64,000 bases of DNA, taken from positions 50 through 64,049 of the forward strand of contig CAYQJX010000014.1 in assembly GCA_964417965.1 (NCBI GenBank), read 5' to 3'. The DNA is from an uncultured Elusimicrobiaceae bacterium (GTDB lineage Bacteria; Elusimicrobiota; Elusimicrobia; Elusimicrobiales; UBA9959). Positions 27,928 through 62,222 of the stretch are shown in pieces. The notes below the pieces were generated by a model. That model did no database searches. It saw nothing but the letters and a program-made list of their open reading frames with translations, and was not told where the DNA came from. Positions within the stretch are counted from its first letter, which is position 1. Every line of letters begins with the position of its first letter. Made by a program: the position numbers and the translations under genes.

Positions 27928-27991
27928 AATCGCCCGGGTATAGTCTACCAAACGCCTGTTACAGGATTGTTAACAAAAGTTTAAGTGTTAC

Positions 27992-28763: not shown

Positions 28764-28837
28764 TGGAGCGGGTGATGGGAATCGAACCCACGTCTAATGC
28801 TTGGGAAGCACTCGTTCTACCATTGAACTACACCCGC
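28764..28837 (-). tRNA. tRNA-Gly (anticodon CCC), CCA encoded
   Basis: The 74-nt minus-strand sequence GCGGGTG-TA-GTTC-AATGGTA-GAAC-G-AGTGC-TTCCCAA-GCATT-AGAC-GTGGG-TTCGATT-CCCAT-CACCCGC-T-CCA folds as a cloverleaf. Confidence 0.9.
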
Positions 28838-44863: not shown

Positions 44864-46558
44864 CTAGCGGAAGTAGTAGTAATGCTGCACGCGCTCAAGC
44901 CCGGCGAGCGGGAAGGGCGCGCAGCTCTTGCCCGACACCGGTACCGTCAGCACCAGCTGGTGCTGGTTATAGTATTCGTCGTAGTCCGCGAGCACCCTGA
45001 GCTCCCCTTTCGGCAGGGCTTCCACCGGCCTCTCCAGCACCAGCGGCGGGAACTTGGGCCTGGAGTGCAGCAGCTTGGCGCCGCTGGTCAGGTTCACCGA
45101 ATGGTACTGGCCGTACCCCGAGGCGCAGAAGCTGCGGTTGGTGGCGGAGTTGGGCACGAAATTAACCGTGACGGCGCAGGACTGGTGCGGGGCCAGCGAC
45201 TGCCCGGTGCAGCCGTCCGACACGACCTTGAAGACGCCCGGCAGGCGGGAGGTGTCCAGCTTTATCCTGTGCCAGGTCTCGCCGCCGGTATTGTAGACCC
45301 GCAGCACCTCGGCCATGTTGTAGCCCTCGGGCACCAGGTCGAAATCCAGCCTGTTGGAGTAGCCGGCGGAGCCGTTCCAGTTGTGCTGCCACCACCAGGT
45401 GAGGTAGGAGTATTTGGACTCGCCCTTCAGCTCCACGTAGGTCTGGTAGTCCATCGCCCCGTCGTCGTTGGAGCCTATGGAGAGGCCGCTGTAGTACTCC
45501 TTGGCCGCCTTCGGCGAGAAGCGCACGCTGAACGTGCAGCTCTTGCCCGGCGCCAGCCTGGCGGAGGTGCACTTGTCCTGTTCCAGGTAGAACGGCGTCT
45601 CGTCGTCCATGTTCTCTATCCTGCCCAGCCGCAGCTCGGCGTCGCCGATGTTCATGATGATGACCAGGCGGGCGCCTGTTTCGTAGTTGTACATCTTGCC
45701 GAAGTCCAGCGAGCGGGGCCAGATGAAAGCGACCGGCATGGGGTCGCGTTTTGTCTTTTCCTCCCGCGGGCCGCCGCCGGTGGTGGAGGCCTCTTCCGGG
45801 CTCTGCGCGTTCTGGGCGGCCGACTGGCCGCCGCCGTGGGAGCCGTAGTCGCCGGAGCTGAGGTCGCGGCCGCTCCCCTGCCCGCCGGAGGAGGAAAAAG
45901 AAGAATCTTCGGAGCCCGACTCGCTGCCCTGGCCCAACCGGCCCTGCGGCCCGGAGCCCTGCCGCCCGCTCCGGGAGAGGCCCGCGCCGGAGAACCCGGA
46001 GGAGAAGGCGCTCTTTTTTCCGCCCGAAGCGGCTCCGCTCCCCGCAGCCTGCAGGCGCGGGGCCTGCTGCCCGGCGACGCGCAGCGTCCCGGCCCCGGCC
46101 GACTGGCCGCCGGTCCCGTTGCCGGACCGGGGGTTGTAAACGTTGCCGCCCTGCTGCTGCGCTTCCTGCGCCTGAGCCGCGGCCGCCAGCGCTTCCGGGT
46201 CGTACTTGACCTCCGCGCGGGCCTGCCGCATGAATTCCCGCAGCTCCGCCTTGCTCATCTGTTTTCGCGGTTTTACGGGCGCCTCTTTGACGGCGTCGGT
46301 TTCTTTGGAGTAGCCTTGGTTGACCTTGCGGAACAGCTCTATGGAGGAGCCTGACTGCTGCTCGGTGCGCGCCAGCGGGGAGGAGCCGGGGGCGTATTTG
46401 GGGCCGGAGTCGAATTTAAAGTCGGGAGTGGCGCCGGCGGGAGAGGTCGAATCCCCGGAGCCGCCCGCGAAATAACCTATCCCTACGGCCAGCGCGGCGG
46501 TAAGCACCACCGCGGGCGCGGCCGCGGCCTTCCAGTTAATCACATACCTGCCGTTCAT
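44864..46558 (-). CDS. Membrane-anchored protein with long G/S/Q-rich disordered region and two Ig-like (choice-of-anchor-D/ASH-type) domains
   Basis: 564 aa with a GGAGGA Shine-Dalgarno and an N-terminal TM helix. ~200-aa low-complexity region. Two modules carry C...L.PG.SC...V.F.P signatures (CTSARLAPGKSCTFSVRFSP; CTGQSLAPHQSCAVTVNFVP). Confidence 0.55.
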   Translation of the reverse strand: MNGRYVINWKAAAAPAVVLTAALAVGIGYFAGGSGDSTSPAGATPDFKFDSGPKYAPGSSPLARTEQQSGSSIELFRKVNQGYSKETDAVKEAPVKPRKQMSKAELREFMRQARAEVKYDPEALAAAAQAQEAQQQGGNVYNPRSGNGTGGQSAGAGTLRVAGQQAPRLQAAGSGAASGGKKSAFSSGFSGAGLSRSGRQGSGPQGRLGQGSESGSEDSSFSSSGGQGSGRDLSSGDYGSHGGGQSAAQNAQSPEEASTTGGGPREEKTKRDPMPVAFIWPRSLDFGKMYNYETGARLVIIMNIGDAELRLGRIENMDDETPFYLEQDKCTSARLAPGKSCTFSVRFSPKAAKEYYSGLSIGSNDDGAMDYQTYVELKGESKYSYLTWWWQHNWNGSAGYSNRLDFDLVPEGYNMAEVLRVYNTGGETWHRIKLDTSRLPGVFKVVSDGCTGQSLAPHQSCAVTVNFVPNSATNRSFCASGYGQYHSVNLTSGAKLLHSRPKFPPLVLERPVEALPKGELRVLADYDEYYNQHQLVLTVPVSGKSCAPFPLAGLERVQHYYYFR

Positions 46559-46675
46559 AAATCCTCCGTCCCCGCCCCGGACCCTATGAAGTTAGTATAC
46601 ACCACGCCCGGCCGGTTTTCAAGGTTTAAAAGTAACCTTTGTCTCTTTTTATTTTTATTGTAGAATAATAAGCCA

Positions 46676-47008
46676 ATGGGCATCTGGGACAACGCCTTCA
46701 AAATTCCGGAACCTCCGGAACCGACTCCGGAAGAAAAACGGCTTTTGGAGATCCTTGCAGGAAAAGTCCGCAAGCGCAGTATGGGAGATGTGGCCGCTTT
46801 CATGGTGGAGAGCACCCGGCCCCTGCACGAGCTCGGAGCCCAGAGCTTAATTTTTATAGAACCGGCGCTGGCGGCCTTCTTCGGCAAAGAGGAGACCGCC
46901 AAGTACCGGGCCATACTGGAAAACAGTAAGGCTGTTACATACCTGGTCAACAAGCTTAGCGAAGAAACCGCGAAAAAGGAAGACCCCAATGTCAAAAAAA
47001 GACCTTGA
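46676..47008 (+). CDS. Small helical hypothetical protein, first gene of the nine-gene operon
   Basis: 110 aa. TAGAAT lies 9 nt upstream of the ATG. Overlaps the next gene by 20 nt. Confidence 0.45.
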   Translation: MGIWDNAFKIPEPPEPTPEEKRLLEILAGKVRKRSMGDVAAFMVESTRPLHELGAQSLIFIEPALAAFFGKEETAKYRAILENSKAVTYLVNKLSEETAKKEDPNVKKRP

Positions 47009-48782
47009 AGTTATCATAGCCACCGACTGCGGCAGCACCACCACCAAGGCCGTGCTGATAGAAAAGAAAGGCGACACCTACCGCCAGACTTTCCGGGGCG
47101 AGGCTCCGACCACCGTGGAAGCTCCCTTTGAGGACGTGACGAAAGGCGTGCTTAACTCGATAACCGAGGTAGAAGAACTCTCCGGCCGCAAGATCCTGGA
47201 CGGCGAGAAGATCATAACGCCCAATAGCGGCAACATCGGCGCGGATATCTACGTGTCCACCTCCTCGGCCGGCGGCGGCCTGCAGATGATGGTGGCCGGC
47301 GCCGTGAAGGCCATGACCGGAGAATCCGCCCAGCGCTGCGCGCTCGGCGCGGGCGCCATAGTGATGGACGTGCTGGCCTCCAACGACGGCCGCGCGGACC
47401 ACGAGAAGATCGAGCGCATCCGCCAGCTGCGCCCCGACATGATGCTGCTTTCCGGCGGCACCGACGGCGGGACCGTGACCCATGTGGTGGAGCTCGCCCA
47501 GTTCCTGAAAGCCGCGGACCCGAAGCCCCGCCTGGGCGCTTCCTACAAGCTGCCGGTCATCTACGCCGGCAACAACATGGCCCATGAGAAGATCAAAGAG
47601 ATCCTCGGCGACCGCACCGCGCTGATCATTACCGAGAACCTGCGCCCGACCCTGGAGCGCGAGAACCTGATGCCCGCGCGCCACAAGATCCACGATATTT
47701 TCCTTGAGCACGTGATGCAGCAGGCTCCCGGCTACCCGCGCCTGATGAAGATGGTGGGTGCGCCCATCATGCCCACCCCCGCGGCCGTGGGCACCATGAC
47801 CGAGAAGTTCGCCAAGGCCAACGGTTTTAACGTGCTGGCCGTGGACATCGGCGGTGCCACCACCGACGTCTTCTCCGTGTTCAGCGGGGTGTTCAACCGC
47901 ACCGTCAGCGCCAACCTGGGCATGAGCTACTCCATCTCCAACGTGATGGCCGAGGCGGGCCTGGCCAACATCCTGCGGTGGCTGCCGTTCGACATAGACG
48001 AGCAGGACCTGCGCAACCGCCTCAAGAACAAGATGATCCGCCCCACCACTATCCCGCAGACGGTGGAGGACCTGCAGATAGAGCATGCTGTATCCCGCGA
48101 GGCGCTGCGCCTGGCTTTCGACCAGCACAAGGCGCTGGCCGTCGGCCTGAAGGGCGTGCAGCAGGAGCGCTCCATCTCCGACGCTTTCGACCAGACCGCC
48201 TCCGGCCAGAGCCTCATCAACGTGATGAAGCTCGACTATGTGATCGGCTCCGGCGGCATCCTGGCGCATTCCCCCCGCCGCACCCAGTCGATGATGATGA
48301 TGATAGACGCCTACCAGCCCGAAGGCATCACCCGCATGGCCGTGGACAGCATCTTCATGATGCCGCACCTGGGCGTGCTGGCCCAGATCAGCGAGAAGGC
48401 CGCGCTGGACGTGTTCTACCACGACTGCCTAGTGCGCATGGGCACCTGCCTCGCGCCCAAGGGCCTGGCCAAGGACGGCCAGCTGATCATGGAGTGGGAA
48501 GTCACCGGCTCCGACGGCAAGAAACAGGCCGGGCAGCTGCGCTTCGGCGACATCCTGCATGTGCCTTTTGATTCCCCGAAAGCCAGGCTCGTGGCCAAAC
48601 CCGTAAAGGGCTTTGACATGGGCGCCGGTTCCGGCAGCAGGGTGGAGGCGGAGATAGAGGGCGGCGTGGTGGGCCTGGTGCTCGACGGCCGCGGCCGGCC
48701 CTTCAATATCTCCAAGGAACCCGCCAAGCGCCGCGATAACCTTAACAAGTGGTACAAGTCCATGGGGATGTACCCGGTGTAA
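46989..48782 (+). CDS. GlmL/MutL-like ASKHA-fold ATPase
   Basis: 597 aa with an AAGGAAGA Shine-Dalgarno. ATDCGSTTTK phosphate-1 motif, a second VDIGGATTDV motif and SGGTDGG. Collinear with the glutamate-mutase accessory protein family, but no mutase genes are nearby. Confidence 0.65.
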   Translation: MSKKDLEVIIATDCGSTTTKAVLIEKKGDTYRQTFRGEAPTTVEAPFEDVTKGVLNSITEVEELSGRKILDGEKIITPNSGNIGADIYVSTSSAGGGLQMMVAGAVKAMTGESAQRCALGAGAIVMDVLASNDGRADHEKIERIRQLRPDMMLLSGGTDGGTVTHVVELAQFLKAADPKPRLGASYKLPVIYAGNNMAHEKIKEILGDRTALIITENLRPTLERENLMPARHKIHDIFLEHVMQQAPGYPRLMKMVGAPIMPTPAAVGTMTEKFAKANGFNVLAVDIGGATTDVFSVFSGVFNRTVSANLGMSYSISNVMAEAGLANILRWLPFDIDEQDLRNRLKNKMIRPTTIPQTVEDLQIEHAVSREALRLAFDQHKALAVGLKGVQQERSISDAFDQTASGQSLINVMKLDYVIGSGGILAHSPRRTQSMMMMIDAYQPEGITRMAVDSIFMMPHLGVLAQISEKAALDVFYHDCLVRMGTCLAPKGLAKDGQLIMEWEVTGSDGKKQAGQLRFGDILHVPFDSPKARLVAKPVKGFDMGAGSGSRVEAEIEGGVVGLVLDGRGRPFNISKEPAKRRDNLNKWYKSMGMYPV

Positions 48783-48816
48783 CGCGACAGATCTTACGAA
48801 AACTGGAGAAAACAAT

Positions 48817-49941
48817 ATGGCTCACGCATATACCCCCGGACTTAAAGTAATGCCCTGCACGCTGTTCAGGAAGAAGCGCCTGCTGCCGATCCCCGGCAAA
48901 GTGCTGGTGGCCGAAGGCAAGCAGGTGGAAGCTACCGACATAGTGGCCCAGACCGAACTGCCCGGCAAGGTGTTCCCGATCAATATAGCCAACCGCATGT
49001 CGGTCGCCCCGGAAGAGATAAAGGACCTGCTGCTGAAAAAAGAGGGCGATACGGTCAGGAAGGGCGAGATCATCGCCGAGAACAAGCCTTTCATCAAGTG
49101 GTTCAAAACTACCCTGGAATCGCCGATAGACGGGACGGTGGACTCTGTCTCCCACCTTACCGGCCAGATCATGCTGCGCGAGCCTCCGAAGGTGCTGCCG
49201 CTGCCGGCCTACATTAAAGGCAGGGTGGTGGAGGTGACCCCCGAGTTCGGCGTGACCATAGAGTCCGAAGGCACGTTCATCCAGGGCATCTTCGGCATCG
49301 GCGGCGAGACCAACGGCGAGATCCACATGGCCGCGAAGAGCCCCGACGAAGAGCTTACCCCGGAATCCATTAACGAAGCCTGCCGCGGCAAGATCGTGAT
49401 CGGCGGCAAGCACGCGGGGATCACCGCCATCAAGCGCGGCGTAGAGATGGGCGTGAAAGCCATCGTGGTGGGCGGCATTCACGACCGCGACCTGCGCCAG
49501 CTGCTGGGCTACGACATAGGCGTGGCCGTGACCGGCACCGAGAAGATAGGGCTGACCGTGATCGTTACCGAGGGCTTCGGCATGATCCCGATGGCCGAGT
49601 ACACCTTTAAACTGCTGGCCTCCCGCAACGGCGAGAAAGCTTCCGTCTCCGGCGCCACGCAGATCCGCGCCGGCGTGATGCGGCCCGAGATCATCGTACC
49701 CGGCTTCCCCAAGAACGTCACCGAGTGCAAGAAGGACCAGGGCCGCGGCTGGATAGAACCCGGCGACCCCATCCGCATCATCCGCGAGCCGCACTTCGGC
49801 GTGATCGGCACGGTGAAGTCCCTGCCCCCGGAGCTGACCGTGATCGGCAGCGAATCCCACGCCCGCGTGCTGGAAGTTACCCTTGACGGCGGGGAAGTGA
49901 TAGTAATCCCCCGCGCCAACATCGAAGTTTTGGAGAAGTAG
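48817..49941 (+). CDS. Conserved hypothetical protein (N-terminal barrel-sandwich hybrid, central Rossmann-like region, C-terminal KOW-like region)
   Basis: 374 aa with a GGAGAA Shine-Dalgarno. The domain guesses come from sequence patterns only (GDTVRKGEIIAE; VVGGIHDRDL; TVIVTEGFG). Confidence 0.5.
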   Translation: MAHAYTPGLKVMPCTLFRKKRLLPIPGKVLVAEGKQVEATDIVAQTELPGKVFPINIANRMSVAPEEIKDLLLKKEGDTVRKGEIIAENKPFIKWFKTTLESPIDGTVDSVSHLTGQIMLREPPKVLPLPAYIKGRVVEVTPEFGVTIESEGTFIQGIFGIGGETNGEIHMAAKSPDEELTPESINEACRGKIVIGGKHAGITAIKRGVEMGVKAIVVGGIHDRDLRQLLGYDIGVAVTGTEKIGLTVIVTEGFGMIPMAEYTFKLLASRNGEKASVSGATQIRAGVMRPEIIVPGFPKNVTECKKDQGRGWIEPGDPIRIIREPHFGVIGTVKSLPPELTVIGSESHARVLEVTLDGGEVIVIPRANIEVLEK

Positions 49942-50039: not shown

Positions 50040-52271
50040 ATGGCTAAAAAAGCACAGCAAAAAAAGACGCCTCCCGCCGCGGCCGCGGTGACCCCCAGGC
50101 TGCCTGCCATGGCCGTGACCGCCCTGATCGCGGCGTGGCTGCTCGTCGTGCTGGTAAATTACACGGCCCAGAATGGCTTTTTTACGCTGTCCCCTTTCGC
50201 CCCCCCGCTCTGGCTGACCAACCTGGGCCGGGCCGGCCACCTGTTCATGTACGCGCCGCAGCTGCTGCTGCTGGCCCTGTTCTCGGCCTCCGCGCTGCTG
50301 CTCGGCGGGACCCTGCTGCGGGCGGTCGCCGGGCCGGAGAATAAAGACATCGGCGGCCTGGACTGGCTGCTGTTCTCGCTGGGCCTCGGCTTCGGCGCGC
50401 TTTCGCTGCTGACCCTGGGCCTGGGTTTTGCCGGCCAGCTCAACCGGCCCGCCCTCCTCGCCGTCCTGGGCGCCGCCTGCGTGCCCGGGGCCGTTTGGTT
50501 CAGGGCGGATTTCAGCGGGCGGCTGGCCGGGCTGCTGGCCGAAGTCAGGTCCGTCCGGTTCTCCGGCTTCGACCTGGTGCTGTTGTTCCTGCTGGCGCTG
50601 TACGGCGCCTCGGCGCTGGTCTGGACCCTGGCGCCGGAGATCTTCTTTGACTCCCTGGTCTACCACCTCGCCGTGCCGTCATCCTACCTGCAGGAGGGCC
50701 GCGTTCTCGCCGAGCCCCACAACCTCAATTCCGCCTTCCCGCTGCTGATGCAGATGCTTTACGCGGCCGGCCTGCTGCTTTCCGACGACGTGCTGCCCAA
50801 GCTGATGCATTTCTCCACGGGGCTGTTCCTGCTGGGCACGCTGTTCGCCATGGGCCGGCGCTGGTTTTCGGTTACCGCCGGGCTGCTCGCCTGCGTCATC
50901 TTCCTGGGCATGCCGATGTCGCTTATCAACATGTGCAGCACCGGCGTGGAGATAGGTTCGGCCTGGTTCACCGCGCTGGCCGTCTACGCCCTGCTCCTTT
51001 TTTCCGCCAGGGAGGGCGGCCCCGGGCCCGTTTTCGACAGGACCCTGCTGCTGGCCGGGATCTTCGCGGGCCTCGCCTGCGGCACCAAGTACCCGGCCCT
51101 GTTCACCGTCATTGCCGGCGGCGCGGTGGTCCTCTACCGGCGCCCGGACATGGACTCGCCCCGCGACTACGGCCTGGCCCTCAAGCGGGCGCTGGTCTTC
51201 GGAGGGGCGGCCGCGCTTGTCTTTCTGCCGTGGCCGCTGAAGAACCTGGTCTTCCACGGCAACCCGCTGTACCCGTTCTTCGGCAAGTTGCTGGGCGGGC
51301 AGCTGGTGGACCCGGTGAAGTGGGCTATCTTCAACTCTGACTGTTTCTCGCGCGACCTGGGCGCCGCCTTCCGCACGGTCAGCGACTTTTTCCGGTTCGT
51401 GTTCCACCCCTGGTACATTACTATGTCCGGGATGGGCAACGCCGATTTCGTCGGACCGTTCCTCCTGATCTGCCTGCCGCTGCTGCTGCTGTACCGGCTG
51501 CAGAAGCCGGTGCTGCGCCACCTGGCGCTGTACCTGGCCGTGATGTGGTGCCTGTGGGCGCTGTCCACCACCATGCCCCGCTACTTCCTCCCCTCCCTGT
51601 CCCTGCTGAGCCTGCTGCTGGCCGCGGTGATAACGGAGTCGGGCAGCGCCGTCCTGAAATGGACCCTGCAGGGCGCGCTGGTGGTTTTCTCCCTCTACAG
51701 CGCGCAGTGGATCAGCGAGCTGACAAAATCCCAGGAGGGCTGGCGGGTGGTCTTCGGGCTGCAGTCCAGGGCGGAGTACCTGAGCGCCGCCCATTCGGCG
51801 TATCCCATGCCCTACTACCCGGCCATGGAATATATAAATTCCTCGCTGCCTCCGGACAGCCGGGTGCTGTTCGCCGGGGACAGCCGGAGCTTTTTCTGCG
51901 AGCGCAAGTCGGTCGGGGTTTCCGTGCACGACGTGCACCCGCTGGTGCTCTTCGCCCGCGCCTCCTCCACCCCGGAGGAAATGCAGGCGCGGGTAGCCGC
52001 CGCCGGGATAACCCACCTTTTCCTCAACCTGGGCGAGGCGGTGCGCCTGGATAAGAGCTACCACCTGTTCCAGTGGGACGAGAAAAGCCTCGGCGTCTTT
52101 AACGCCTGGTGGGCCCGTTACGCCGAGCAGCTCTGGAGCGACATGCGCAACAGCCCGTCGGATTACCGCCTGCTGTTCGTCTACAGGCTGACCCCCGGGG
52201 GCAGGCCCGCCTCGGCGCCGCAGCCCCACAATTACATTTACGACCTTTACCTGAAGGGTCTGGAAAAATAG
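50040..52271 (+). CDS. GT-C fold membrane glycosyltransferase (ArnT/PMT-like) with C-terminal soluble domain
   Basis: 743 aa with ~13 TM segments. An early periplasmic-loop acidic motif (EIFFDSLVYH). ~200-aa C-terminal non-membrane domain. The start is uncertain because there is no Shine-Dalgarno. Confidence 0.6.
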   Translation: MAKKAQQKKTPPAAAAVTPRLPAMAVTALIAAWLLVVLVNYTAQNGFFTLSPFAPPLWLTNLGRAGHLFMYAPQLLLLALFSASALLLGGTLLRAVAGPENKDIGGLDWLLFSLGLGFGALSLLTLGLGFAGQLNRPALLAVLGAACVPGAVWFRADFSGRLAGLLAEVRSVRFSGFDLVLLFLLALYGASALVWTLAPEIFFDSLVYHLAVPSSYLQEGRVLAEPHNLNSAFPLLMQMLYAAGLLLSDDVLPKLMHFSTGLFLLGTLFAMGRRWFSVTAGLLACVIFLGMPMSLINMCSTGVEIGSAWFTALAVYALLLFSAREGGPGPVFDRTLLLAGIFAGLACGTKYPALFTVIAGGAVVLYRRPDMDSPRDYGLALKRALVFGGAAALVFLPWPLKNLVFHGNPLYPFFGKLLGGQLVDPVKWAIFNSDCFSRDLGAAFRTVSDFFRFVFHPWYITMSGMGNADFVGPFLLICLPLLLLYRLQKPVLRHLALYLAVMWCLWALSTTMPRYFLPSLSLLSLLLAAVITESGSAVLKWTLQGALVVFSLYSAQWISELTKSQEGWRVVFGLQSRAEYLSAAHSAYPMPYYPAMEYINSSLPPDSRVLFAGDSRSFFCERKSVGVSVHDVHPLVLFARASSTPEEMQARVAAAGITHLFLNLGEAVRLDKSYHLFQWDEKSLGVFNAWWARYAEQLWSDMRNSPSDYRLLFVYRLTPGGRPASAPQPHNYIYDLYLKGLEK

Positions 52272-52286
52272 CGGGAGGATAAGCCA

Positions 52287-53456
52287 GTGAGCGAAAAACT
52301 TTCGATAGTCATACCGGCGTACAACGAGCAGGCTTCCATCGCCGGCATAGTCGGGCGCTGCCTCGCCGCCGGGGCGCCGATCTGCGCGGCCACCGGCCTG
52401 ACAGGAGTGGAAGTGCTGGTCGTGGACGACGGCTCGCGCGATAAGACCGGCGAGATCGCCGCCGCTATCCCGGGCGCCAGGCTGATAACCCACCCGCAGA
52501 ACAAGGGCTACGGCCAGGCCCTGATGACGGGGTTCGCCGCCGCGACGGGCGACTACCTCAGCTTCCTCGACGCCGACGGGACCTGCGACCCGCTGGCTTT
52601 CATAGAACTTTACAAGGCCCTTAAGCGGGAGAACGCCGACATGGCCGTGGGCAACCGCCTGCACGCCGGCTCGCAGATGCCGCGGGTGCGGTATATAGGC
52701 AACCGCCTCTACGGCTGGCTGATCTCGCTGCTTTCCGGCGTGCACGTGGAGGACACGGCCAGCGGCATGCGCCTCTTTTCCGCCCGGCTGCTGCCGCGCC
52801 TGGCCCCGCTGCCGAGCGGCCTGCACTTTACCCCCGCCATGACCGCCCGCATGGCCTGCATGGGCGCGCGCATAACGGAAACCCCCATCCCTTACGCCGA
52901 GCGGGAGGGCAGGTCCAAGCTGAGCGTGGTGAGGGACGGGCTCAGGTTCCTGCGCGTCATCCTGGGCATCATCTTCGCCTATTTCCCGCTGCGCATCTTC
53001 GGCCCCATAGGCCTGGTCTTCCTGGTCACCGCGCTGGCCTATTCCATCGGCCCCGTTTCCTTTTACCTGCGCAACCGCTACCTGCACGAGGACGTGATCT
53101 ACCGGCTGATCACCATCTCCACGCTGTGCGTCTGCGGCCTTACGGCGCTGATCTTCGGGCTGATAGGCCAGAGGGTGTCCAATGTTTCGGTGCGCCGCGT
53201 CCGCGGCGCCCTGGAAGCCGGCTGGCTGCGGGGCGGCTCCCTGCTGGCCGGGGCGCTGCTCGGCGCCGCCGGGGTGGCCCTTAATTCCTGGACGATCCTG
53301 GAGTACCTCTCGAGCGGGCGCATAACCATCCACTGGGTCTACGTGCTGACCGGGGGCCTGCTGGTCATCCTGGGCACGCTGCTGCTCTGCGCCGGCATCA
53401 TGATGGCGATACTGGACCACCTGCCCGACTCCGGCGCCCCCAGCCGTTCGCTTTAG
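52287..53456 (+). CDS. GT2 polyprenyl-phosphate glycosyltransferase-like enzyme with C-terminal TM helices
   Basis: GTG start with a GGGAGGA Shine-Dalgarno. IVIPAYNE, VVDDGSRD, NKGYG and a DAD motif. Four C-terminal TM helices as in ArnC/GtrB/DPM1-like enzymes. Confidence 0.8.
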   Translation: MSEKLSIVIPAYNEQASIAGIVGRCLAAGAPICAATGLTGVEVLVVDDGSRDKTGEIAAAIPGARLITHPQNKGYGQALMTGFAAATGDYLSFLDADGTCDPLAFIELYKALKRENADMAVGNRLHAGSQMPRVRYIGNRLYGWLISLLSGVHVEDTASGMRLFSARLLPRLAPLPSGLHFTPAMTARMACMGARITETPIPYAEREGRSKLSVVRDGLRFLRVILGIIFAYFPLRIFGPIGLVFLVTALAYSIGPVSFYLRNRYLHEDVIYRLITISTLCVCGLTALIFGLIGQRVSNVSVRRVRGALEAGWLRGGSLLAGALLGAAGVALNSWTILEYLSSGRITIHWVYVLTGGLLVILGTLLLCAGIMMAILDHLPDSGAPSRSL

Positions 53457-53504
53457 TGTTTTCCCTTGCCTGAAAAATCCATAAAGTGTATATTATTAAC
53501 AGTT

Positions 53505-54758
53505 ATGTTAAAAACACGACTCAACCTTGCTGTGTTATCTGTTTTCCTTGCGGCTTCCGTTGTTTCAGCCGCGACTCCCGCCTCCCAGAAAAATGCCCCG
53601 ACCGCCCCGGACCTGTCCGGCTTCGCGGCCAAGGACATGCCCTATGACAAGGGCGAGGCGGTTCTCCTTACCTGGCCCTCCGGGCCCGCCGACGTGCCAG
53701 GCGCCGTCTACCAGGTCTACGCGGCCTCCGGTAAAGACTGGGTCAAGGTGGAAGAGTTCCCGGCCGAAACGAAGCTGGCCGCCGACGTCGAGCTGCCCTT
53801 CTGGGCGTGGGACCGCCACGCCGCGCTGCACGTGGTGCAGCTGGACCTGCCCGGCTTCTTCAATGATTTCAAGATAGGCAACGAGTACCGGTTCAAGGTA
53901 AAGTACGTCAACGGCAAGGTGACGGCGGAAAGCGCCGAACTCCCGGCCGCGCCCAAGCCTAACCTCTTCAACCTGGCCCGGCTCAACAACCTGCTGCTGC
54001 TCATCGTGACGACCATCGTCTTCTTCTGGACCGTGTCGCACGCCAAGCGCAAGGGCGGGCTGTTCATCCGCCGCATCGCCGGCCTCGACGCCATAGACGA
54101 AGCCGTCGGCCGCGCCACCGAAATGGGCCGCCCGATCTTCTACTCCACCGGCATCGGCGGCATGAGCGGCGTGCCCACCATCGCCTCTACCTCTATCCTG
54201 GCCGAGGTCGCCAAAAAAGTCGCCGCGCACGACACCCAGCTCAAGGTGCCGCACTTCGACCCCATCGTGATGACCGTCTCCAAGGAGATAGTCAAGCAGG
54301 CCTACGCCGAGGTGAATCGCCTGGACTCCTACCGCGACGACATCAACTTCTTCGTCAGCCAGGACCAGTTCTCCTACGCCGCCTCCGTGGACGGCATGAT
54401 CCACCGCGAGAAGCCGGCCGCCTGCTTCTTCATCGGCCACTTCATGGCCGAGTCGCTGCTGCTGGCCGAGGTCGGCGCCACTACCGGCGCCATCCAGATC
54501 GCCGGCACCGAGCAGGAATCGCAGCTGCCGTTCTTCTTCACCTCCTGCGACTACACGCTCATCGGCGAGGAACTCTACGCCGCCGGCGCGTACCTGTCCA
54601 AGGAGCCCATGCTGCAGAGCACGCTCAAGGTGCAGGACTTCGGCAAGGCCTTCGTGATGTTCTCCATAGTCGCGGGGTCGGCGCTGCTGCTGGCCGGCAC
54701 CTGGTTCAAGATGGACACGCTGGTCACGGTGGTAAAGCACCTCTTCAAGGCCTATTGA
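53505..54758 (+). CDS. Uncharacterised bitopic/polytopic membrane protein (module gene 1)
   Basis: ATG at 53505 is preferred over the TTG at 53466. Signal peptide, a ~130-aa beta-rich exported domain, one TM helix, a ~230-aa soluble domain and a C-terminal TM helix. Confidence 0.55.
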   Translation: MLKTRLNLAVLSVFLAASVVSAATPASQKNAPTAPDLSGFAAKDMPYDKGEAVLLTWPSGPADVPGAVYQVYAASGKDWVKVEEFPAETKLAADVELPFWAWDRHAALHVVQLDLPGFFNDFKIGNEYRFKVKYVNGKVTAESAELPAAPKPNLFNLARLNNLLLLIVTTIVFFWTVSHAKRKGGLFIRRIAGLDAIDEAVGRATEMGRPIFYSTGIGGMSGVPTIASTSILAEVAKKVAAHDTQLKVPHFDPIVMTVSKEIVKQAYAEVNRLDSYRDDINFFVSQDQFSYAASVDGMIHREKPAACFFIGHFMAESLLLAEVGATTGAIQIAGTEQESQLPFFFTSCDYTLIGEELYAAGAYLSKEPMLQSTLKVQDFGKAFVMFSIVAGSALLLAGTWFKMDTLVTVVKHLFKAY

Positions 54759-54759
54759 T

Positions 54760-55431
54760 ATGACATTGATAAAAAAACACATACCGCTGGCTATCTGCTT
54801 CATCGTCGGCCTCCTGACGCTGAGCTCCTATTATGTCCCTACACAGGCCTCTGAAAAATATGTGGAGACCATGAATAAGTGGGAGAACATCGTGGCCGGC
54901 TTCGCGTTCCTGCTGGGCCTGTTCAGCCTGTTCTTCTCGCATACCCGCAAGATCACCCGCAAGGTGGACGGCTGGGGCTACAGCCTGTTCGTCTTTGTGG
55001 GCTTCCTCGCGATGGTCGTCCCGGCCATCGTGAGCAACGGCAAGCAGATGGTCGGCGCCGACCTGACCGGTCTGGGCTGGGGCTACCGCTTCCTGTTCAA
55101 TGCCCTCTCCGGCACGATGTTCTCGGTGCTGGCATTCTACATCGTCTCCACGGCGTACCGCGCGTTCCGCATCAAGTCGCTGCAGGCCGGCGTGCTGTTC
55201 GCGGCGGCGCTGGTGCTGATGCTCGCCAAGGTGCCGCTCGGCCAGATGATCTGGGAAAGCCTGTTCGGCTGGACCGGGGTCTGGGATATCGCCCAGATCG
55301 GCCAGTGGCTCATGGACGTCCCGGCGGTGGCCGGCAAGCGCGGCATCATGATGGGCCTCGCGATAGGCGGCATCGTGACGGCGCTGAAGATCATCTTCGG
55401 CATCGAGCGCCAGTACATGGGTAAGGACTGA
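54760..55431 (+). CDS. Uncharacterised polytopic membrane protein (module gene 2)
   Basis: 223 aa with ~6 TM segments. Starts 1 nt after the upstream stop. Confidence 0.55.
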   Translation: MTLIKKHIPLAICFIVGLLTLSSYYVPTQASEKYVETMNKWENIVAGFAFLLGLFSLFFSHTRKITRKVDGWGYSLFVFVGFLAMVVPAIVSNGKQMVGADLTGLGWGYRFLFNALSGTMFSVLAFYIVSTAYRAFRIKSLQAGVLFAAALVLMLAKVPLGQMIWESLFGWTGVWDIAQIGQWLMDVPAVAGKRGIMMGLAIGGIVTALKIIFGIERQYMGKD

Positions 55432-55434
55432 ACC

Positions 55435-56262
55435 ATGAAAAACATTATCGAAAAGATCCTGAAAATTGACAGGCGCCTGATCTTCCTGGCGCTGACGATC
55501 CTGCTGGTGTTCCCGATCGTCAGGCCGCTGGGCCTGCCGAACAAGAACATCGGCAACGAAGTGAAGGCCCTCTACGAGAAGATCGAGAGTCTGCCCGCCG
55601 GCTCCTTCCTCCTGCTGTCGCTGGATTACGACCCGGCGACCCGCCCCGAGCTGCACCCGCAGGCGGTGGCGGTTATCAAGCACGCCTTCCGCAAGGACCT
55701 GCGCGTCATGATCCTGACGCTGAACGCCGGCGCTACCGGCCTCATCGACGAGATCGGCGAGCGCATCCCCAAGGATATCGCCCCGTCCAAGAAGTACGGG
55801 ACCGACTACGTGATCCTGCCCTACCAGCCCAACCCGGTGGCCGTGATGACGCAGCTCGGCATGGACATGTACCAGATCTACGACAAGGACCGGGACGGCG
55901 CCCTGCTCAGGGAGATGCCGGTCATGAAAGGCATCCGCAACGTCAAGGATATGCAGCTCGGCATGTGCATCACCGGCACGGCCATGCTGGACTACTGGGT
56001 CGCCTACACGGGCGACAAGTTCAAGATGCCCTTTGCCGGCGGCACCACCGCAGTCAGCCAGATAGGTTATGCGCCTTACCTGCAGACCGGCCAGCTGAAG
56101 GGCCTGATGGGCGGCATGAAGGGCGCGGCCGACTACGAGCTGCTGATAGGCGCCAAGGAAAAGGGCACGGCCGGACTGGACGCGCTCAGCCTCGCCCACA
56201 TCATGGTGATAGGCCTGATCGTGGTGGCCAACATCATGATGTTCTGGCTCAAGTACCTGTAA
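55435..56262 (+). CDS. Uncharacterised membrane-anchored protein (module gene 3)
   Basis: 275 aa with N- and C-terminal TM helices flanking a soluble alpha/beta-looking domain. AAGGA Shine-Dalgarno upstream. Confidence 0.55.
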   Translation: MKNIIEKILKIDRRLIFLALTILLVFPIVRPLGLPNKNIGNEVKALYEKIESLPAGSFLLLSLDYDPATRPELHPQAVAVIKHAFRKDLRVMILTLNAGATGLIDEIGERIPKDIAPSKKYGTDYVILPYQPNPVAVMTQLGMDMYQIYDKDRDGALLREMPVMKGIRNVKDMQLGMCITGTAMLDYWVAYTGDKFKMPFAGGTTAVSQIGYAPYLQTGQLKGLMGGMKGAADYELLIGAKEKGTAGLDALSLAHIMVIGLIVVANIMMFWLKYL

Positions 56263-56275
56263 TTTAGGAGAAATT

Positions 56276-57013
56276 ATGTCAGAAACAATGTTCATCTTCG
56301 GCGGGTGGGTGGCGGCGGGCCTGACCATCTTCCTGTTCAGCTTCCTCTACAAGGATAACCCGTTCTTCAAAGCGGCGGAGCACCTGTACCTCGGCGCGGG
56401 CATGGGCTGGGTGTTCCAGACCGTGCTCTTCCAGACCTGGATTCCCAAGGTCTGGGAGCCGCTGACCAAGAGCGGCGACTGGACGGTGCTGGTCCCGACC
56501 GTGCTCGGCCTGACGCTGGTGACGCAGTTCTTCCCCAAGATCTCGTGGATGTCGCGCTACGGCTTCACCTTCATCATGGGCTATGGTTCAGGCCTGGTGA
56601 TCCCGCTGACGATCTCCACCGACCTGCTCAAGCAGATCGGCGGCACGATGGCGCCCTTCATGGTCTCCGAGGTCACGCGCGGCAACATCTGGTCGCTGGT
56701 CAACGGCGGCATCATCGCGGTGGGCTTTATCTGCGTGCTGTTCTACTTCTTCTTCTCGGTAGAGCACAAGGGCGCCATAAAGAAGGCCTCGAATATCGGC
56801 ATCTACTTCCTGATGCTCTACTTCGGGGCGGCCTTCGGCAATACCGTCATGGGCCGCTTCTCGCTGCTCTACGGGCGTTTCGACGACCTGTACAAGTATT
56901 CGTCGCCCAAGTACTTCTACGCCACGCACATCATCCTGGGCGTAATGGTGCTCTACTTCATAGTGGACCACTTCCGCACGCGCAAGCCCGCGGTAGAGGA
57001 AGAAGCCGCTTAA
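56276..57013 (+). CDS. Uncharacterised polytopic membrane protein (module gene 4)
   Basis: 245 aa with ~7 TM segments. AGGAG Shine-Dalgarno upstream. Confidence 0.55.
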   Translation: MSETMFIFGGWVAAGLTIFLFSFLYKDNPFFKAAEHLYLGAGMGWVFQTVLFQTWIPKVWEPLTKSGDWTVLVPTVLGLTLVTQFFPKISWMSRYGFTFIMGYGSGLVIPLTISTDLLKQIGGTMAPFMVSEVTRGNIWSLVNGGIIAVGFICVLFYFFFSVEHKGAIKKASNIGIYFLMLYFGAAFGNTVMGRFSLLYGRFDDLYKYSSPKYFYATHIILGVMVLYFIVDHFRTRKPAVEEEAA

Positions 57014-57030: not shown

Positions 57031-57063
57031 AAAGGCGGGCCGGTTATCCGGCCCGCCTTTTTT
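57031..57063. terminator. Bidirectional rho-independent terminator ending the nine-gene operon
   Basis: The aggcgggccgg-ttat-ccggcccgcct hairpin with an A-rich left flank and a T6 right flank. Confidence 0.8.
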
Positions 57064-57082: not shown

Positions 57083-57940
57083 TTACTTTATTATCTCTAT
57101 CTTGGCTTTGGCCCTGAGCTCGGCGGCGAGTTCGGGCAGCTTCTGGGTTACCGCCTGGTTGAGCATGGCGGCCTTTATTTCCTCTTTTACCGCGGCGAAG
57201 TCCGCTTCCTTGCCGGGCCGGCGCTCTTCGGAGCGGAAGATGCTGTAGCCGTTGCCGGTGGTCAGGGGCTTGGTGAACTGGCCGGGCTGCAGGGCGAAGA
57301 TCTCCTTCTCTATCTCCGGGACCAGCATGCCTTTGGCGATGAACCCCAGGCTGCCGTTGTTCTTCTTGAGGTTGGCGTCGGAGGATTTCAGCGAGGACAG
57401 CTTGGCGAAGTCGGCGCCCACCGAGGTCAGCAGGTCGTAGGCGTCGTCGGCCTCGGCCTTGGTGTTAACGAAGATCTGGCTGAGCTTTACGGATTCCGGC
57501 GAGCCCAGGCGCTCTTTGTTCTTGTCGAAGAAGGCCCTGGCGTCCTCGTCGGTGACGGCCAGGCGGCCGGCGGTTATGACCGCGGACCGGATGAGCATCT
57601 GGCGGCGGATCAGGTCGCGCAGTTCTCCTTTAGACCAGCCTACGGACTTCAGGTTCTTCTCGAACTGGGCCTTGTCGGGGTAGTTGGCCTCCAGGCTGGT
57701 CAGCCGGGCGTCCACCTGCTTGGGGTCCGCTTTCAGGCCGAGGCGGGCGGCCTCTTCGAGCAGGAGCTTCTCGTCGATAAGCTCGGAAAGGCCCTGCGCG
57801 CTGTACTGCCACCACAGCTTCTTGGTGAGTTCCTCGGGCGCTATTTTAGTCCCGTTGACTACCGCTACGTTCTTTTCGGCCGCGTACAGGCCGGTGCCCA
57901 GCAGGGCCACGGCGGCGGCGGCTAATATGGTTCTTTTCAT
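57083..57940 (-). CDS. SurA/PrsA-like parvulin peptidyl-prolyl isomerase
   Basis: Signal peptide, a chaperone-like N-terminal domain, and a parvulin core (SQIFV...GSLGFI......FAL..G....P..T..GYSIF). Confidence 0.8.
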   Translation of the reverse strand: MKRTILAAAAVALLGTGLYAAEKNVAVVNGTKIAPEELTKKLWWQYSAQGLSELIDEKLLLEEAARLGLKADPKQVDARLTSLEANYPDKAQFEKNLKSVGWSKGELRDLIRRQMLIRSAVITAGRLAVTDEDARAFFDKNKERLGSPESVKLSQIFVNTKAEADDAYDLLTSVGADFAKLSSLKSSDANLKKNNGSLGFIAKGMLVPEIEKEIFALQPGQFTKPLTTGNGYSIFRSEERRPGKEADFAAVKEEIKAAMLNQAVTQKLPELAAELRAKAKIEIIK

Positions 57941-57953
57941 TTTTTTACCTCCG

Positions 57954-59033
57954 TTATTTCTTTACTAAAACTGTCTGCGTCGGGTAAGCCAGCTCGGCCC
58001 CGGCGGCGTGCAGGCCTTCCAGGACGCCCAGCAGGGTCTTCTCGTGGGCGGCCATATAGGCGTTGTAGTCCGGCTCGGTGAGGTAGTACACGGTCTCGAA
58101 TTCCAGCGCGTAGTCGCCGCAGTTGAAAAGGTTGCAGCGGTCGAACTCGGCCTTGGGCACGCCCTGTACCGCCTTTTTCATGAGCGCCGGTATCTTTTTT
58201 AGTATCTCCGGGCTGGTGCCGTAGACGATGCCGGTCTTGAAGACGACGCGGCGCTTGGTGAGGTCCTTGTAGTTGCGGATGCGCGAGCCCAGCAGGTTGG
58301 AATTGGAGACTACCACCATCTCGCCGGAGATGCTGCGGATGCGGGTGGACTTCAGGCCCACGTGCTCTATGGTGCCGGAGACGGCGTCGGAGACTATGAA
58401 GTCGCCTATGGCGAACGGTTTGTCGAGCAGGATGACGAAGAAGTTGAACAGGTCGCCGAGGATGGCCTGCGCGGCGAGGGCCACGGCGACGCCGCCGATG
58501 CCGAGGCCGGTGAGGACGGCGGAGATGTTGACGCCCAGGTTGTCGAGCACGAACAGGACGGCGGCGACCCAGACGAGGGTGCGCAGGATGACCTGGGTGC
58601 TCTTGACCACGGAGTTCTTGGCCTGGCCGTCGAGCTCGCGGCCGGCGGCGACCTTGTTGATCCAGTAGGTGAGCAGGTCCTGGGCGATGGTGATGGCGCG
58701 GTAGGTGAAGACCACCAGTAGGAGGACCTTGAAGGCTTTGTCGAAGGCCGCGCCGCGCTGCAGGTAGCGGGTGGCCACGAAGAGGGCGACGAGCTGGTAC
58801 TCGAACCAGCGGAACTTCTCTATGAGGGCGATGACGAGGTCGTCGAGGTCCGTCTCCGTCTTAAGGGCCAGGGCCTTGAGCCGGTTGATGCCGATGTTCT
58901 TTACGATATAGAGCAGAGCGAGCGCGGCGCAGAACGCCGCCAGCGCCAGCCCGTAGCCGGTGGGCGTATTCCCCAGTATAAGCGTAGTGTCAGCCCAGTT
59001 GGAAAAAGCCCCGCTATTAAAAGCTATGTTCAT
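57954..59033 (-). CDS. MscS-family mechanosensitive channel
   Basis: 359 aa with N-terminal TM helices. The pore-helix/beta-domain signature GIGGVAVALAAQ...PF.IGD.I...G.V...G...T.IR. Confidence 0.85.
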   Translation of the reverse strand: MNIAFNSGAFSNWADTTLILGNTPTGYGLALAAFCAALALLYIVKNIGINRLKALALKTETDLDDLVIALIEKFRWFEYQLVALFVATRYLQRGAAFDKAFKVLLLVVFTYRAITIAQDLLTYWINKVAAGRELDGQAKNSVVKSTQVILRTLVWVAAVLFVLDNLGVNISAVLTGLGIGGVAVALAAQAILGDLFNFFVILLDKPFAIGDFIVSDAVSGTIEHVGLKSTRIRSISGEMVVVSNSNLLGSRIRNYKDLTKRRVVFKTGIVYGTSPEILKKIPALMKKAVQGVPKAEFDRCNLFNCGDYALEFETVYYLTEPDYNAYMAAHEKTLLGVLEGLHAAGAELAYPTQTVLVKK

Positions 59034-59433: not shown

Positions 59434-60300
59434 CTACCCGGGGAGGACCGTCACGGAATCGAACTCCGCTCTGGTGCTGTCCCACGTTCGCAGTCCGGCG
59501 CTGCCGGAGGTGAAGGTGGAATCAGTGAGGGTCAGCATTTTCACTCCGTCCACGTAGATGGTCTGCGCGCTGCCGGATACGGTTATCTGTATCTGGTGCT
59601 GGGTATTGTAAATAGGGAATCCGGCCGGGATCTTTGTGACCGCGATCGGGGAACTTTCGGTCCCGTTCACCACCTTTCTTACGAGGAAAGCCCCGCCGCT
59701 GCCCCAGCCTGGGTCGTACTGGAAACAATAGCCGCTGATGGCGCTTTTGCCGTCGGCCCGGTAATACACGCCATAACCGCTGCCGGTGGTTAAATTGGCG
59801 TTAAGAGATATCGAGTAATCTGTCCATGTGTCGTCTCCGAAAGAAAGGCGAGACTCCATGGAGGCTAAGCTTTGAAGGATACCGCCTGCCGTTACCCATT
59901 TTCCTGAAAGGACTTTAAGCATGCTCATGGAACTGAAATCCGAACTAAAGAGCGGGGTGGGGCCGCTGGGGTTGGAGAAAGGCCAGTAGTGGACGCTGCA
60001 GCCGACGATAGCCGCGGAGGTGGAAACCCAGACGTAAGTGCCGCCCGCCGTACAATAAGGGCTCCTGTCTATGTATTTGCTGTCTTTGAGCTCTTCAATG
60101 GAGGCGGCGGGGGTGTTGTTGTGTTCTATGCGGTAGCGCATTTCAGCGCTCTGTATCTCCTGGCGGTTGGCGTCGCATTGCGCTGTTTTTGATTTGGCTA
60201 TGGCAGTGCGTATTCTTGGGATGGCGGAAGTGGCAAGGATGGAAGCTATCGCTACCGTTACCATAAGCTCCATGAGCATGAAAGCCGGCCTGCGGTTCAT
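59434..60300 (-). CDS. Prepilin-type N-terminal domain protein fused to a LamG/DUF1080-like lectin domain
   Basis: The N-terminus MNRRPA-FMLMELMVTVAIASILA is a class III signal with Glu at +5. The C-terminal ~170 aa have a jelly-roll pattern (GKW...W.DY......GYGVYYRA...GYCFQYDPG). Confidence 0.7.
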   Translation of the reverse strand: MNRRPAFMLMELMVTVAIASILATSAIPRIRTAIAKSKTAQCDANRQEIQSAEMRYRIEHNNTPAASIEELKDSKYIDRSPYCTAGGTYVWVSTSAAIVGCSVHYWPFSNPSGPTPLFSSDFSSMSMLKVLSGKWVTAGGILQSLASMESRLSFGDDTWTDYSISLNANLTTGSGYGVYYRADGKSAISGYCFQYDPGWGSGGAFLVRKVVNGTESSPIAVTKIPAGFPIYNTQHQIQITVSGSAQTIYVDGVKMLTLTDSTFTSGSAGLRTWDSTRAEFDSVTVLPG

Positions 60301-61280: not shown

Positions 61281-62222
61281 TTATCCTAATTTGTATTTGA
61301 GGAAGATGTCGAAGACCAGCTGGGCCATGGCCACCGGGGCCAGGTATTTCCAGCAGAAATTGATCATCTGCTCTATGCGGATACGGGCCATCAGCACCTT
61401 CAGCAGCGCCAGCAGGAAGGTGATGAACAGCGTCTTGGCCAGGAACAGGGCTATGGCCGCGGGGCCCGTCAGGCCCAGCGCACCGCCGAGGAACACCGCG
61501 TTAAGCAGCGCCGCCCCGACCACCATCTCCATATCCACGGCCAGCAGGAAGAAGTCCAGCAGGCGGCCGGAATACTCGGTGAACTGCCCGCCCACGATCT
61601 CGTTCTTGGCGTGCGGGATGTCGAAAGGCATGCGCTCGAGTTTCCCCTGCAGCGCTATCAGCGCCGCCAGGAAGCCCAGCAGCTGCGCCGGGATCAGCAC
61701 CGGGTGCGCCGCGTAGAAAGCGGAGATCTCGGTGATGTTCCAGGTGCCGGCCAGTATCGCCGGGCCGATCAGGGAGAGCATCAGCGGCACCTCGTAGGCG
61801 AACAACTGCGTCAGCACGCGCATGGCGCCCACGGTGGAATACGGGCTCGAAGAGCTCCAGCCGGCCAGGAAGAAGGTCACCGTCGGGATGGTCAGCAGGT
61901 AGATCACGGCTATCAGGTCGCCCTGGAAGCCGTACACGGCCGTGCCCCAGACCGGGATCGAAAGCAGCGCCGTAATTATGGCCGCCATCGCGAAGAAAGG
62001 CAGCACGCGGAACATCCGCGTATTCGCCTCGTCCGGCACGATAACTTCCTTGGCCAGCAGCTTTATGAAGTCGGCGTAGCCCTGGAACCACGGGGGGCCC
62101 ATGCGGTTCTGCATCACCGCGCAGAGCTTCCGGTCCACCCACTGGAGGAACAGGCCGTACACGGCCAGGAACAGGAAGCCCGGGAAGATCAAGAGGTAAG
62201 CGAGGGGTGTTATTAATTCCAT
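61281..62222 (-). CDS. Membrane subunit (NuoH/EchB/HycD-like)
   Basis: 313 aa with 8 TM segments. RK..A..Q.R.GP motif (DRKLCAVMQNRMGP). EY..G and PFD...E-type motifs. Confidence 0.85.
   Translation of the reverse strand: MELITPLAYLLIFPGFLFLAVYGLFLQWVDRKLCAVMQNRMGPPWFQGYADFIKLLAKEVIVPDEANTRMFRVLPFFAMAAIITALLSIPVWGTAVYGFQGDLIAVIYLLTIPTVTFFLAGWSSSSPYSTVGAMRVLTQLFAYEVPLMLSLIGPAILAGTWNITEISAFYAAHPVLIPAQLLGFLAALIALQGKLERMPFDIPHAKNEIVGGQFTEYSGRLLDFFLLAVDMEMVVGAALLNAVFLGGALGLTGPAAIALFLAKTLFITFLLALLKVLMARIRIEQMINFCWKYLAPVAMAQLVFDIFLKYKLG

Follow-up and report, generated by a model that had tools for sequence, protein, structure and literature searches.

Do four consecutive genes with hardly a nucleotide between them encode the subunits of a single membrane complex, and if so, what might drive it? 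The question is raised by positions 53505-57013 of a 64,000-nucleotide (nt) stretch of DNA from an uncultured Elusimicrobiaceae bacterium (assembly GCA_964417965.1, contig CAYQJX010000014.1); the whole stretch is referred to below as the window. A sequence-only reading had described four genes here, which we name g1 to g4, and had proposed that they form a stable membrane complex with an undescribed role. Their layout, taken from the list of open reading frames (ORFs), is given below; lengths are in amino acids (aa) and TM stands for transmembrane.

53505-54758, + strand: g1, DUF6754 protein, 417 aa from an ATG start
54760-55431, + strand: g2, predicted 6-TM inner-membrane subunit, 223 aa
55435-56262, + strand: g3, predicted bitopic hairpin subunit, 275 aa
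56276-57013, + strand: g4, predicted inner-membrane subunit with about seven TM helices, 245 aa

The four lengths and the intergenic gaps of 1, 3 and 13 nt (g1/g2, g2/g3 and g3/g4), with all genes on the forward strand, reproduce exactly what had been reported. An alternative TTG start of g1 at 53466 would give a protein of 430 aa; the ATG at 53505 is supported by orthologues that are likewise 417 aa long. Judged by gene order and sequence, g1-g4 are very probably four different subunits of one conserved inner-membrane complex, and the functional unit probably reaches upstream to a GlmL-type ATPase module at 46676-49941.

Conservation of the four-gene cassette

A g1 alignment was scanned against one genome per GTDB species. 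At least 594 species contain a relative, and the best 80 loci were inspected. Co-occurrence was counted with iterated hidden Markov models on the six-frame ORFs of 83 loci. The sequence-only reading had named a lack of co-occurrence in other genomes as evidence that would speak against it; instead, g1 is followed by g2 in 82, by g3 in 80 and by g4 in 77 of the 83 loci, with the strand and the order 1-2-3-4 preserved throughout. Nearly all of the missing cases are contig ends or short contigs. The order spans at least 15 mostly uncultured phyla. The labels of the best 80 loci comprise Elusimicrobia, Nitrospirota, NC10, Latescibacterota, Planctomycetota (including anammox genera), Binatia, WOR-3, Gemmatimonadota, Edwardsbacteria, Sumerlaeota, Poribacteria, Ignavibacteriales, Armatimonadota, Zixibacteria, Eisenbacteria, Stahlbacteria and others. 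All four genes are approximately 30-50% identical among many phyla with the order kept, and the arrangement is far beyond chance. The junctions are tight or overlapping in the called genes of other loci. No cultured host was among the top matches of two g1 searches, and top matches assign the source of the window to the Elusimicrobia. One locus, L061 (CAYNIW010000018.1), is labelled Desulfuromonadaceae, and its g1 is 84-88% identical to proteins of WOR-3 metagenome-assembled genomes (MAGs), which suggests that L061 is mis-binned or mislabelled; taxon labels of MAGs can err.

Complete cassettes stand in tandem, two or three at a time, in seven loci; in three more, a complete cassette precedes a copy that is incomplete or runs off the contig. 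Between these paralogous cassettes the divergence of the four genes runs in parallel (35-80% identity) and is greatest in g3. In the planctomycete locus L050 (L050:1249-2595), the TM3-TM4 loop of g2, which is predicted to be periplasmic, accommodates a g3-like domain. Because the synteny is invariant, whole cassettes duplicate together and a g3-like domain is fused into g2, the four proteins would form an obligate hetero-oligomer of co-evolving subunits. The near-perfect co-occurrence, the co-duplication and the domain fusion thus support the stable membrane complex that had been proposed from the window. The g2 of L066 (L066:9025-9981) has an insert of approximately 108 aa, without family assignment, at the same site as the insertion in L050. 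Two tandem g3 paralogues are present in L031 and L032.

If real, the cassette would be a large and ancient protein machine, with relatives in at least 594 GTDB species and the gene order in at least 15 phyla, that has gone unstudied because model organisms lack it. Its recognition would aid the annotation of Elusimicrobia, WOR-3, Latescibacterota, anammox Planctomycetota and other groups, which are abundant in groundwater, sediments and bioreactors.

Predicted architecture of g1-g4

g1 matches the Pfam family DUF6754 (PF20539) over residues 151-398 with 352.3 bits (E = 1.7e-105; gathering score 27 bits), and its orthologues of other phyla score 375-406 bits. The family is catalogued but uncharacterised, and the Pfam entry covers g1 only, not the partners g2-g4. 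NCBI names relatives of g1 either 'DUF6754 domain-containing protein' or 'fibronectin type III domain-containing protein'. The AlphaFold2 (AF2) model of g1 (mean predicted local distance difference test score, pLDDT, 71.9) consists of a signal-peptide helix, a β-sandwich (residues 41-148), a TM helix (157-183), an α/β domain (190-365), a second TM helix (368-400) and a short C-terminal helix. The exported β-rich domain, the TM helix and the soluble domain seen by the sequence-only reading all recur in the model, but the second TM helix had been overlooked. From the bias of lysine and arginine (K/R) residues and from family-averaged hydropathy, g1 is predicted to have an exported Fn3 domain, a TM helix, a cytoplasmic DUF6754 loop and a second TM helix.

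Sensitive profile searches and a Foldseek comparison of predicted structures, both of which had been recommended with the original description, were carried out (Foldseek for g1 and g4). Against the PDB, the N-terminal domain of g1 matches only Fn3/Ig folds, and the α/β domain gives a single weak flavodoxin-like match (6y01, target-normalised TM-score 0.50). With a deep cross-phylum g1 profile, the sole match among PDB sequences is the Fn3 domain of the exopolygalacturonase 2uve (E = 0.005); the DUF6754 domain has no PDB sequence match in the profile searches. The N-terminal extensions of g1 relatives carry Fn3 only. That DUF6754 might be a B12-binding domain, of the kind marked by a DxHxxG motif, gained no support: hhalign of its profile with a GlmS sequence gave a probability of 0.3%, a result that counts as a lead only.

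Across 45 g1 orthologues of many phyla 38 columns are invariant, and the conservation is concentrated in the cytoplasmic domain. The invariant motifs include A.GRATEMG, QLPFF and CDY..GEELYAA.AY. The domain has a Rossmann-like β-α pattern with invariant glycine-rich and acidic loops at the strand ends, and it is 40-50% identical between phyla, which points to a function under strong constraint. In the otherwise variable Fn3-like domain, the clearest cross-phylum motif is A-x-D-(T/M)-P-(N/Y)-D-x-G at residues 42-50 (window approximately 53628-53654), followed by the nearly invariant W57.

The topologies of the partners were predicted from family-averaged hydropathy. g2 has six TM helices with both termini inside (supported by the K/R bias), and g4 has seven TM segments with the N-terminus outside, in line with the earlier estimate of about six and seven. 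g3 has, as had been noted, a soluble domain (approximately 220 residues) between two TM helices; its inside N-terminus is K/R-rich, and therefore the soluble domain should be periplasmic. In long g3 variants (P0280, P0381 and P0312), CARDB, HEAT-repeat or DUF2795 domains are inserted at a single surface position, near residue 110. The CARDB insertions would fit an extracytoplasmic location. Two juxtamembrane motifs are conserved in g4, FLYKDNPFF.AEH and YFFFS.EHKG.

Neither Pfam nor NCBIfam assigns a family to g2, g3 or g4 of the window, and Pfam scans of 45-50 orthologues each (50 for g2, 46 for g3) give no shared family, only scattered chance matches. The g3 family itself is large, with 2798 clusters at 50% identity matching at E ≤ 1e-3. 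Profile searches of PDB sequences return nothing for g2, nothing for g3 even with a 130-sequence profile, and only chance-level matches for g4 (best E = 0.16). The model of g4 has no Foldseek match in the PDB. Paralogy between g1 and g3 or between g2 and g4 is undetectable by BLASTP and hhalign. The absence of Walker, ABC, MFS, Sec, Tol/Exb and RND signatures, first claimed from the window, holds in the Pfam and NCBIfam scans of the window proteins and in the Pfam scans of the g2-g4 orthologues. Homology to a characterised transporter or assembly complex, which would have changed the picture, was found in none of the Pfam, NCBIfam, PADLOC, PDB-sequence and Foldseek-PDB searches. By these comparisons the cassette resembles no characterised transporter or machine, and three of its four subunits are uncatalogued as families, although the proteins may be distantly related to a known fold. 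In a literature search we found no mention of DUF6754 or PF13941, and nowhere a description of the three partner families, the fixed four-gene cassette or the link to an ATPase.

The upstream ATPase module

A look at conserved neighbours had also been suggested. Clustering of the neighbouring ORFs of g1 loci revealed a conserved trio of genes upstream of the cassette, which in the window is as follows.

46676-47008, + strand: c8, first gene of the trio, 110 aa, no Pfam or NCBIfam match
46989-48782, + strand: c6, GlmL/MutL-family actin-fold (ASKHA) ATPase, 597 aa, Pfam MutL (PF13941)
48817-49941, + strand: c4, cytoplasmic protein, 374 aa, N-terminal domain probably an RnfC_N-like barrel-sandwich hybrid

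The genes c8-c6-c4 are directly upstream of g1 in 31 of the 54 g1 loci with enough flanking sequence, and the loci that bear them belong to Armatimonadota, Binatia, Elusimicrobia, Gemmatimonadota, Latescibacterota, NC10, Planctomycetota and Sumerlaeota. When metagenomes were scanned reciprocally with a c4 alignment, 60 c4 loci had enough sequence downstream; g1-g4 follow c4 in 39 of these, adjacent to it in 35, and one further c4 locus has a rearranged order. Of 62 metagenome loci, 53 have c6 ahead of c4. In other phyla the c4 ORF ends approximately 4 nt before the open frame that contains g1; in the WOR-3 locus L164, where a single ATPase trio lies ahead of two cassettes, 10 nt separate the called genes. 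It is well supported that, in most lineages, cassette and trio belong to one larger system, to which they contribute the membrane part and the cytoplasmic part, respectively. The link is frequent, not obligatory at the locus level. Cassettes without a trio may share one that is encoded elsewhere in the genome; sharing between cassettes is possible because one genome can hold several of them. The c6-c4 pairs that lack g1 have no conserved alternative membrane partner downstream. Nothing points to a mobile element, as plasmids yielded no homologue of g1 or c4.

c6 matches the Pfam family MutL over profile positions 1-449 of 450 (424.9 bits, E = 4.8e-127) and has a C-terminal extension of approximately 120 aa; the proteins of its family are approximately 600 aa long. 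It remains below the NCBIfam cut-offs for GlmL (232.9 versus 475 bits), Or-4 (215.9 versus 600) and TIGR01319 (168.5 versus 204). By these scores c6 is assigned to a distinct branch and is no bona fide GlmL. GlmL/MutL is described as the chaperone by which glutamate mutase is reactivated (PMC4682846) and as a member of the actin superfamily (PMC5597319). c6 shares the full-length MutL match with this protein and differs from it by the low GlmL score, the extension and the membrane cassette as a partner. The window cluster contains no mutase genes (GlmS or GlmE) of the B12-dependent GlmS-GlmL-GlmE system. Rfam detected no riboswitch or regulatory RNA, including the cobalamin riboswitch, near the cluster in the window or in nine related loci. 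The c8 family (110-134 aa) has homologues upstream of the ATPase gene in 29 of the 54 g1 loci.

Proteins of the c4 family are approximately 375-385 aa long. The RnfC_N profile matches 18 of 29 c4 orthologues (best E = 1.4e-6); the c4 of the window is below the cut-off (E = 0.0046). The barrel-sandwich fold class is common to biotinyl, lipoyl and many other domains. The C-terminal part of c4 is possibly KOW/SH3-like, given a very weak match to the KOW region of Spt5 in a PDB profile search (E 0.08-0.6; no stretch passes alone). The putative N-terminal domain raises the question of whether the system is a cofactor-less and very distant relative of the ion-translocating redox complexes Rnf and Nqr. 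c4 may have an RnfC_N/NqrA_N-like barrel-sandwich domain in common with these complexes, and the sizes and topologies of g2 and g4 loosely recall RnfA/E, those of g3 RnfG. However, hhalign of the g1-g4 and c4 profiles with RsxA, C, D, G and E of Escherichia coli gave probabilities of at most 1.5%, there are no Rnf-Nqr, RnfD/NqrB or FMN_bind Pfam matches in the window proteins or the g2-g4 orthologues, and there are no conserved cysteine or histidine clusters, heme motifs or cofactor-binding motifs, with only C348 of g1 kept. We regard such a relationship as highly improbable and the idea as largely refuted.

Possible mechanism and surrounding genes

The analysis shows four distinct membrane proteins that are inherited together and complement one another in topology, with a frequent operon link to a GlmL-type ATPase module in many phyla. 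The arrangement suggests how the two parts might work together. The ATPase module would dock on the highly conserved cytoplasmic α/β domain of g1, between its two TM helices. An ATP-driven conformational change would then pass through the bundle of approximately 17 TM helices formed by g1, g2, g3 and g4 and reach the periplasmic parts, the Fn3 domain of g1 and the soluble domain of g3, where it would serve to move, extract or remodel some substrate of the periplasm or envelope. That the ATPase and c4 act on DUF6754 and that the complex relays this action to the Fn3 and g3 domains is plausible rather than probable. The context gives weak hints that the substrate might be envelope glycoconjugates or proteins. 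Such a mechanotransmission or transport machine would draw its power from a chaperone-like actin-fold ATPase and not from an ABC or AAA+ protein. A broader claim would be that the seven genes (c8, the GlmL-type ATPase, c4 and g1-g4) represent an unrecognised class of ATP-driven trans-membrane machine that acts on the diderm periplasm or envelope, uses an actin-fold ATPase instead of an ABC, AAA+, P-type or rotary one, and occurs widely among uncultured phyla but not in model organisms; we put this forward with considerable doubt. If true, pairing a membrane complex with an actin-fold ATPase of the GlmL type would be a novel means of powering bacterial envelope processes, and it would give a function to a 'reactivase-like' branch of ATPases outside B12 enzymology.

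Two kinds of known machine are similar by analogy only. In the type VII ABC mechanotransmission systems (MacB, LolCDE and FtsEX), a cytoplasmic ATPase also works with membrane subunits that have a periplasmic domain between two TM helices and act on the periplasm or envelope; the cassette differs in the actin fold of its ATPase and in its four different membrane subunits. No ABC_tran, FtsX, MacB_PCD or BPD_transp match was obtained for the seven window proteins or for approximately 45 orthologues each of g2-g4. In PilM-PilN-PilO and GspL-GspM, a cytoplasmic ASKHA-fold protein is encoded beside bitopic proteins with periplasmic domains. In contrast, c6 is of the GlmL family and the cassette adds two polytopic subunits; the PilM, PilN, PilO and GspL/M families gave no matches. 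Stators of the MotA/TolQ/ExbB kind are not indicated by the Pfam scans of the window proteins and the g2-g4 orthologues, which contain no MotA_ExbB (PF01618) and no ExbD/TolR or OmpA-like partner match. In L164 a MotA_ExbB gene lies approximately 4 kb downstream of the second cassette as a separate gene. The seven proteins have no match in PADLOC-DB, which covers anti-phage defence.

Several observations weigh against a machine driven by the trio. The trio is missing from the vicinity of 23 of the 54 g1 loci, and g1-g4 in turn from that of some c6-c4 pairs and solo c4 genes. The relatives of GlmL are otherwise soluble enzyme chaperones, none of which is known to drive a membrane complex. The fold match of the DUF6754 domain to 6y01 is weak, and the all-helical AF2 model of g4 is poor (pLDDT 63). 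In favour of the machine, every host seen is from a phylum generally regarded as diderm; this apparent restriction to diderms refers to the best 80 of at least 594 genome matches.

The same lack of a nearby trio would also fit g1-g4 as a new family of solute or nutrient transporters, in which g2 and g4 would form the translocation path, g3 and the Fn3 domain of g1 would be tethered periplasmic binding or adaptor parts, and the ATPase and c4 would be frequent regulatory or metabolic neighbours rather than the source of energy. Two polytopic subunits next to one with a membrane-tethered periplasmic domain would suit a transporter, as would the variable binding-type insertions (CARDB and HEAT) in g3, and several diverged cassettes per genome or locus are typical of transporter paralogues. 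In Latescibacterota, the cluster sits between an SBP_bac_5 gene and oligopeptide ABC ATPase genes, but this peptide-ABC context is limited to one phylum. Pfam scans of approximately 45 orthologues per gene and PDB profile searches showed no similarity to transporter families, the best-conserved part is the cytoplasmic α/β domain and not the TM helices, and the end of the c4 ORF a few nucleotides before the g1 frame in many phyla argues for co-function. A transporter of this kind is a real possibility, to which we give limited credence.

A transmembrane sensor would make other use of the same topology. Here, a cue would be perceived in the periplasm by the Fn3 and g3 domains and passed on to the ATPase and c4 by the conserved cytoplasmic domain. 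The TM hairpins do join periplasmic and cytoplasmic domains, and variable periplasmic insertions are found together with an invariant cytoplasmic domain. However, four subunits with approximately 17 TM helices would be heavy for a sensor, and no kinase, cyclase, HAMP, PAS or DNA-binding partner is present in the window or the related loci inspected; we consider a sensor very unlikely.

The remaining alternative to a mechanotransmission or transport machine concerns the genes that separate c4 from g1 in the window. Two glycosyltransferases (GTs) are encoded there.

50040-52271, + strand: GT-C glycosyltransferase, PMT_2/TMEM260-like (weak), between c4 and g1
52287-53456, + strand: GT2 glycosyltransferase of the polyprenyl-phosphate-sugar-synthase type, Pfam Glycos_transf_2 (E = 2.4e-31)

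The GT-C protein matches Pfam PMT_2 (E = 2.7e-4) and a TMEM260-like model (E = 4.9e-3), both below the cut-off, and its orthologue in L001 has PF02366 (PMT). The GT2 protein matches the NCBIfam models AglJ, ArnC and PpgS-like below the cut-off. Solo c4 genes occur elsewhere. In L151 and L161 (e.g., L161:2682-5870), a solo c4 directly follows a 1063-aa TMEM260-like GT-C with TPR repeats; other solo c4 genes lie between lpxB and accA and are followed by a 304-aa ORF that is outer-membrane-protein-like by eye only (no Pfam hit). L151 and L161 represent a second, independent association with a GT-C protein, and the solo c4 genes are in an envelope-biogenesis context. L125, L128, L132 and L134 are among the loci that have a solo c4 with no ATPase or g1-g4 nearby.

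From these genes one could propose that the cassette assists glycosylation in the periplasm or the biogenesis of the envelope, as an accessory or scaffold that presents or flips polyprenol-linked sugars, holds the substrates of the GT-C enzyme, or carries in its own Fn3 domain the target of glycosylation. The GT-C gene inside the cluster in Elusimicrobia, the GT2 gene of the window and both sets of solo c4 genes can be cited in favour, as can envelope neighbours elsewhere: a SurA-like peptidyl-prolyl isomerase (PPIase) in the window, rseP and dxr in L164, and Omp85, LpoB and Wzi in L165. The GT genes are, however, lineage-specific. The GT-C insertion is present in only 9 of the 83 g1 loci, the labelled ones being Elusimicrobia, and a homologue of the GT2 gene in none, including a relative with a 91% identical g1, so that it is confined to the window. 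The cluster contains no glycosyltransferase in most phyla, and the neighbour associations are heterogeneous and could be incidental. A role in glycosylation is accordingly judged unlikely.

Three further features of the window lie at the borders of the cluster.

46639-46666: promoter-like site before c8, from a promoter scan
53466-53494, + strand: promoter-like site TTGCCT-17-TATATT in the AT-rich gap just 5' of g1; a match to the consensus only, in itself no sign of function
57031-57060, no strand assigned: GC-rich hairpin with a 13-bp stem and 10 G-C pairs, between g4 and the convergent PpiC/SurA-like gene, from a terminator scan

The hairpin is called terminator-like on the minus strand, where the T-run is found; its palindromic stem could act for either strand. 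On its far side, 57083-59033 (minus strand) encodes the SurA/PpiC-type periplasmic PPIase and an MscS channel, convergent with g4. The same pairing occurs in three loci of a close relative (L001-L003), and MscS occurs in nine loci overall. At the other border, 44864-46558 (minus strand) encodes a 564-aa protein with a HYDIN/VesB/ASH-type Ig-like domain, divergent from the cluster; the intergenic region 46559-46675 contains promoter-like sites on both strands.

Further away, 59434-60300 (minus strand) encodes a protein of 288 aa in which a type IV prepilin-like N-terminus (MNRRPAFMLMELMVT...) is fused to a 3-keto-disaccharide-hydrolase/LamG-like domain (Pfam E = 1.6e-5, below the cut-off). A NuoH-like gene (NADHdh, E = 4.5e-77) is located at 61281-62222 and beyond on the minus strand. 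It appears to belong to a complex-I/Mbh-like hydrogenase cluster, by synteny with L001:15983-21254, which holds NiFeSe_Hases, Oxidored_q6 and Proton_antipo_M genes. The minus strand also contains a very long, TTG-initiated ORF (22114-27951, 1945 aa) and a tRNA-Gly(CCC) gene (28764-28837), the only RNA gene found by ARAGORN or Rfam in the window.

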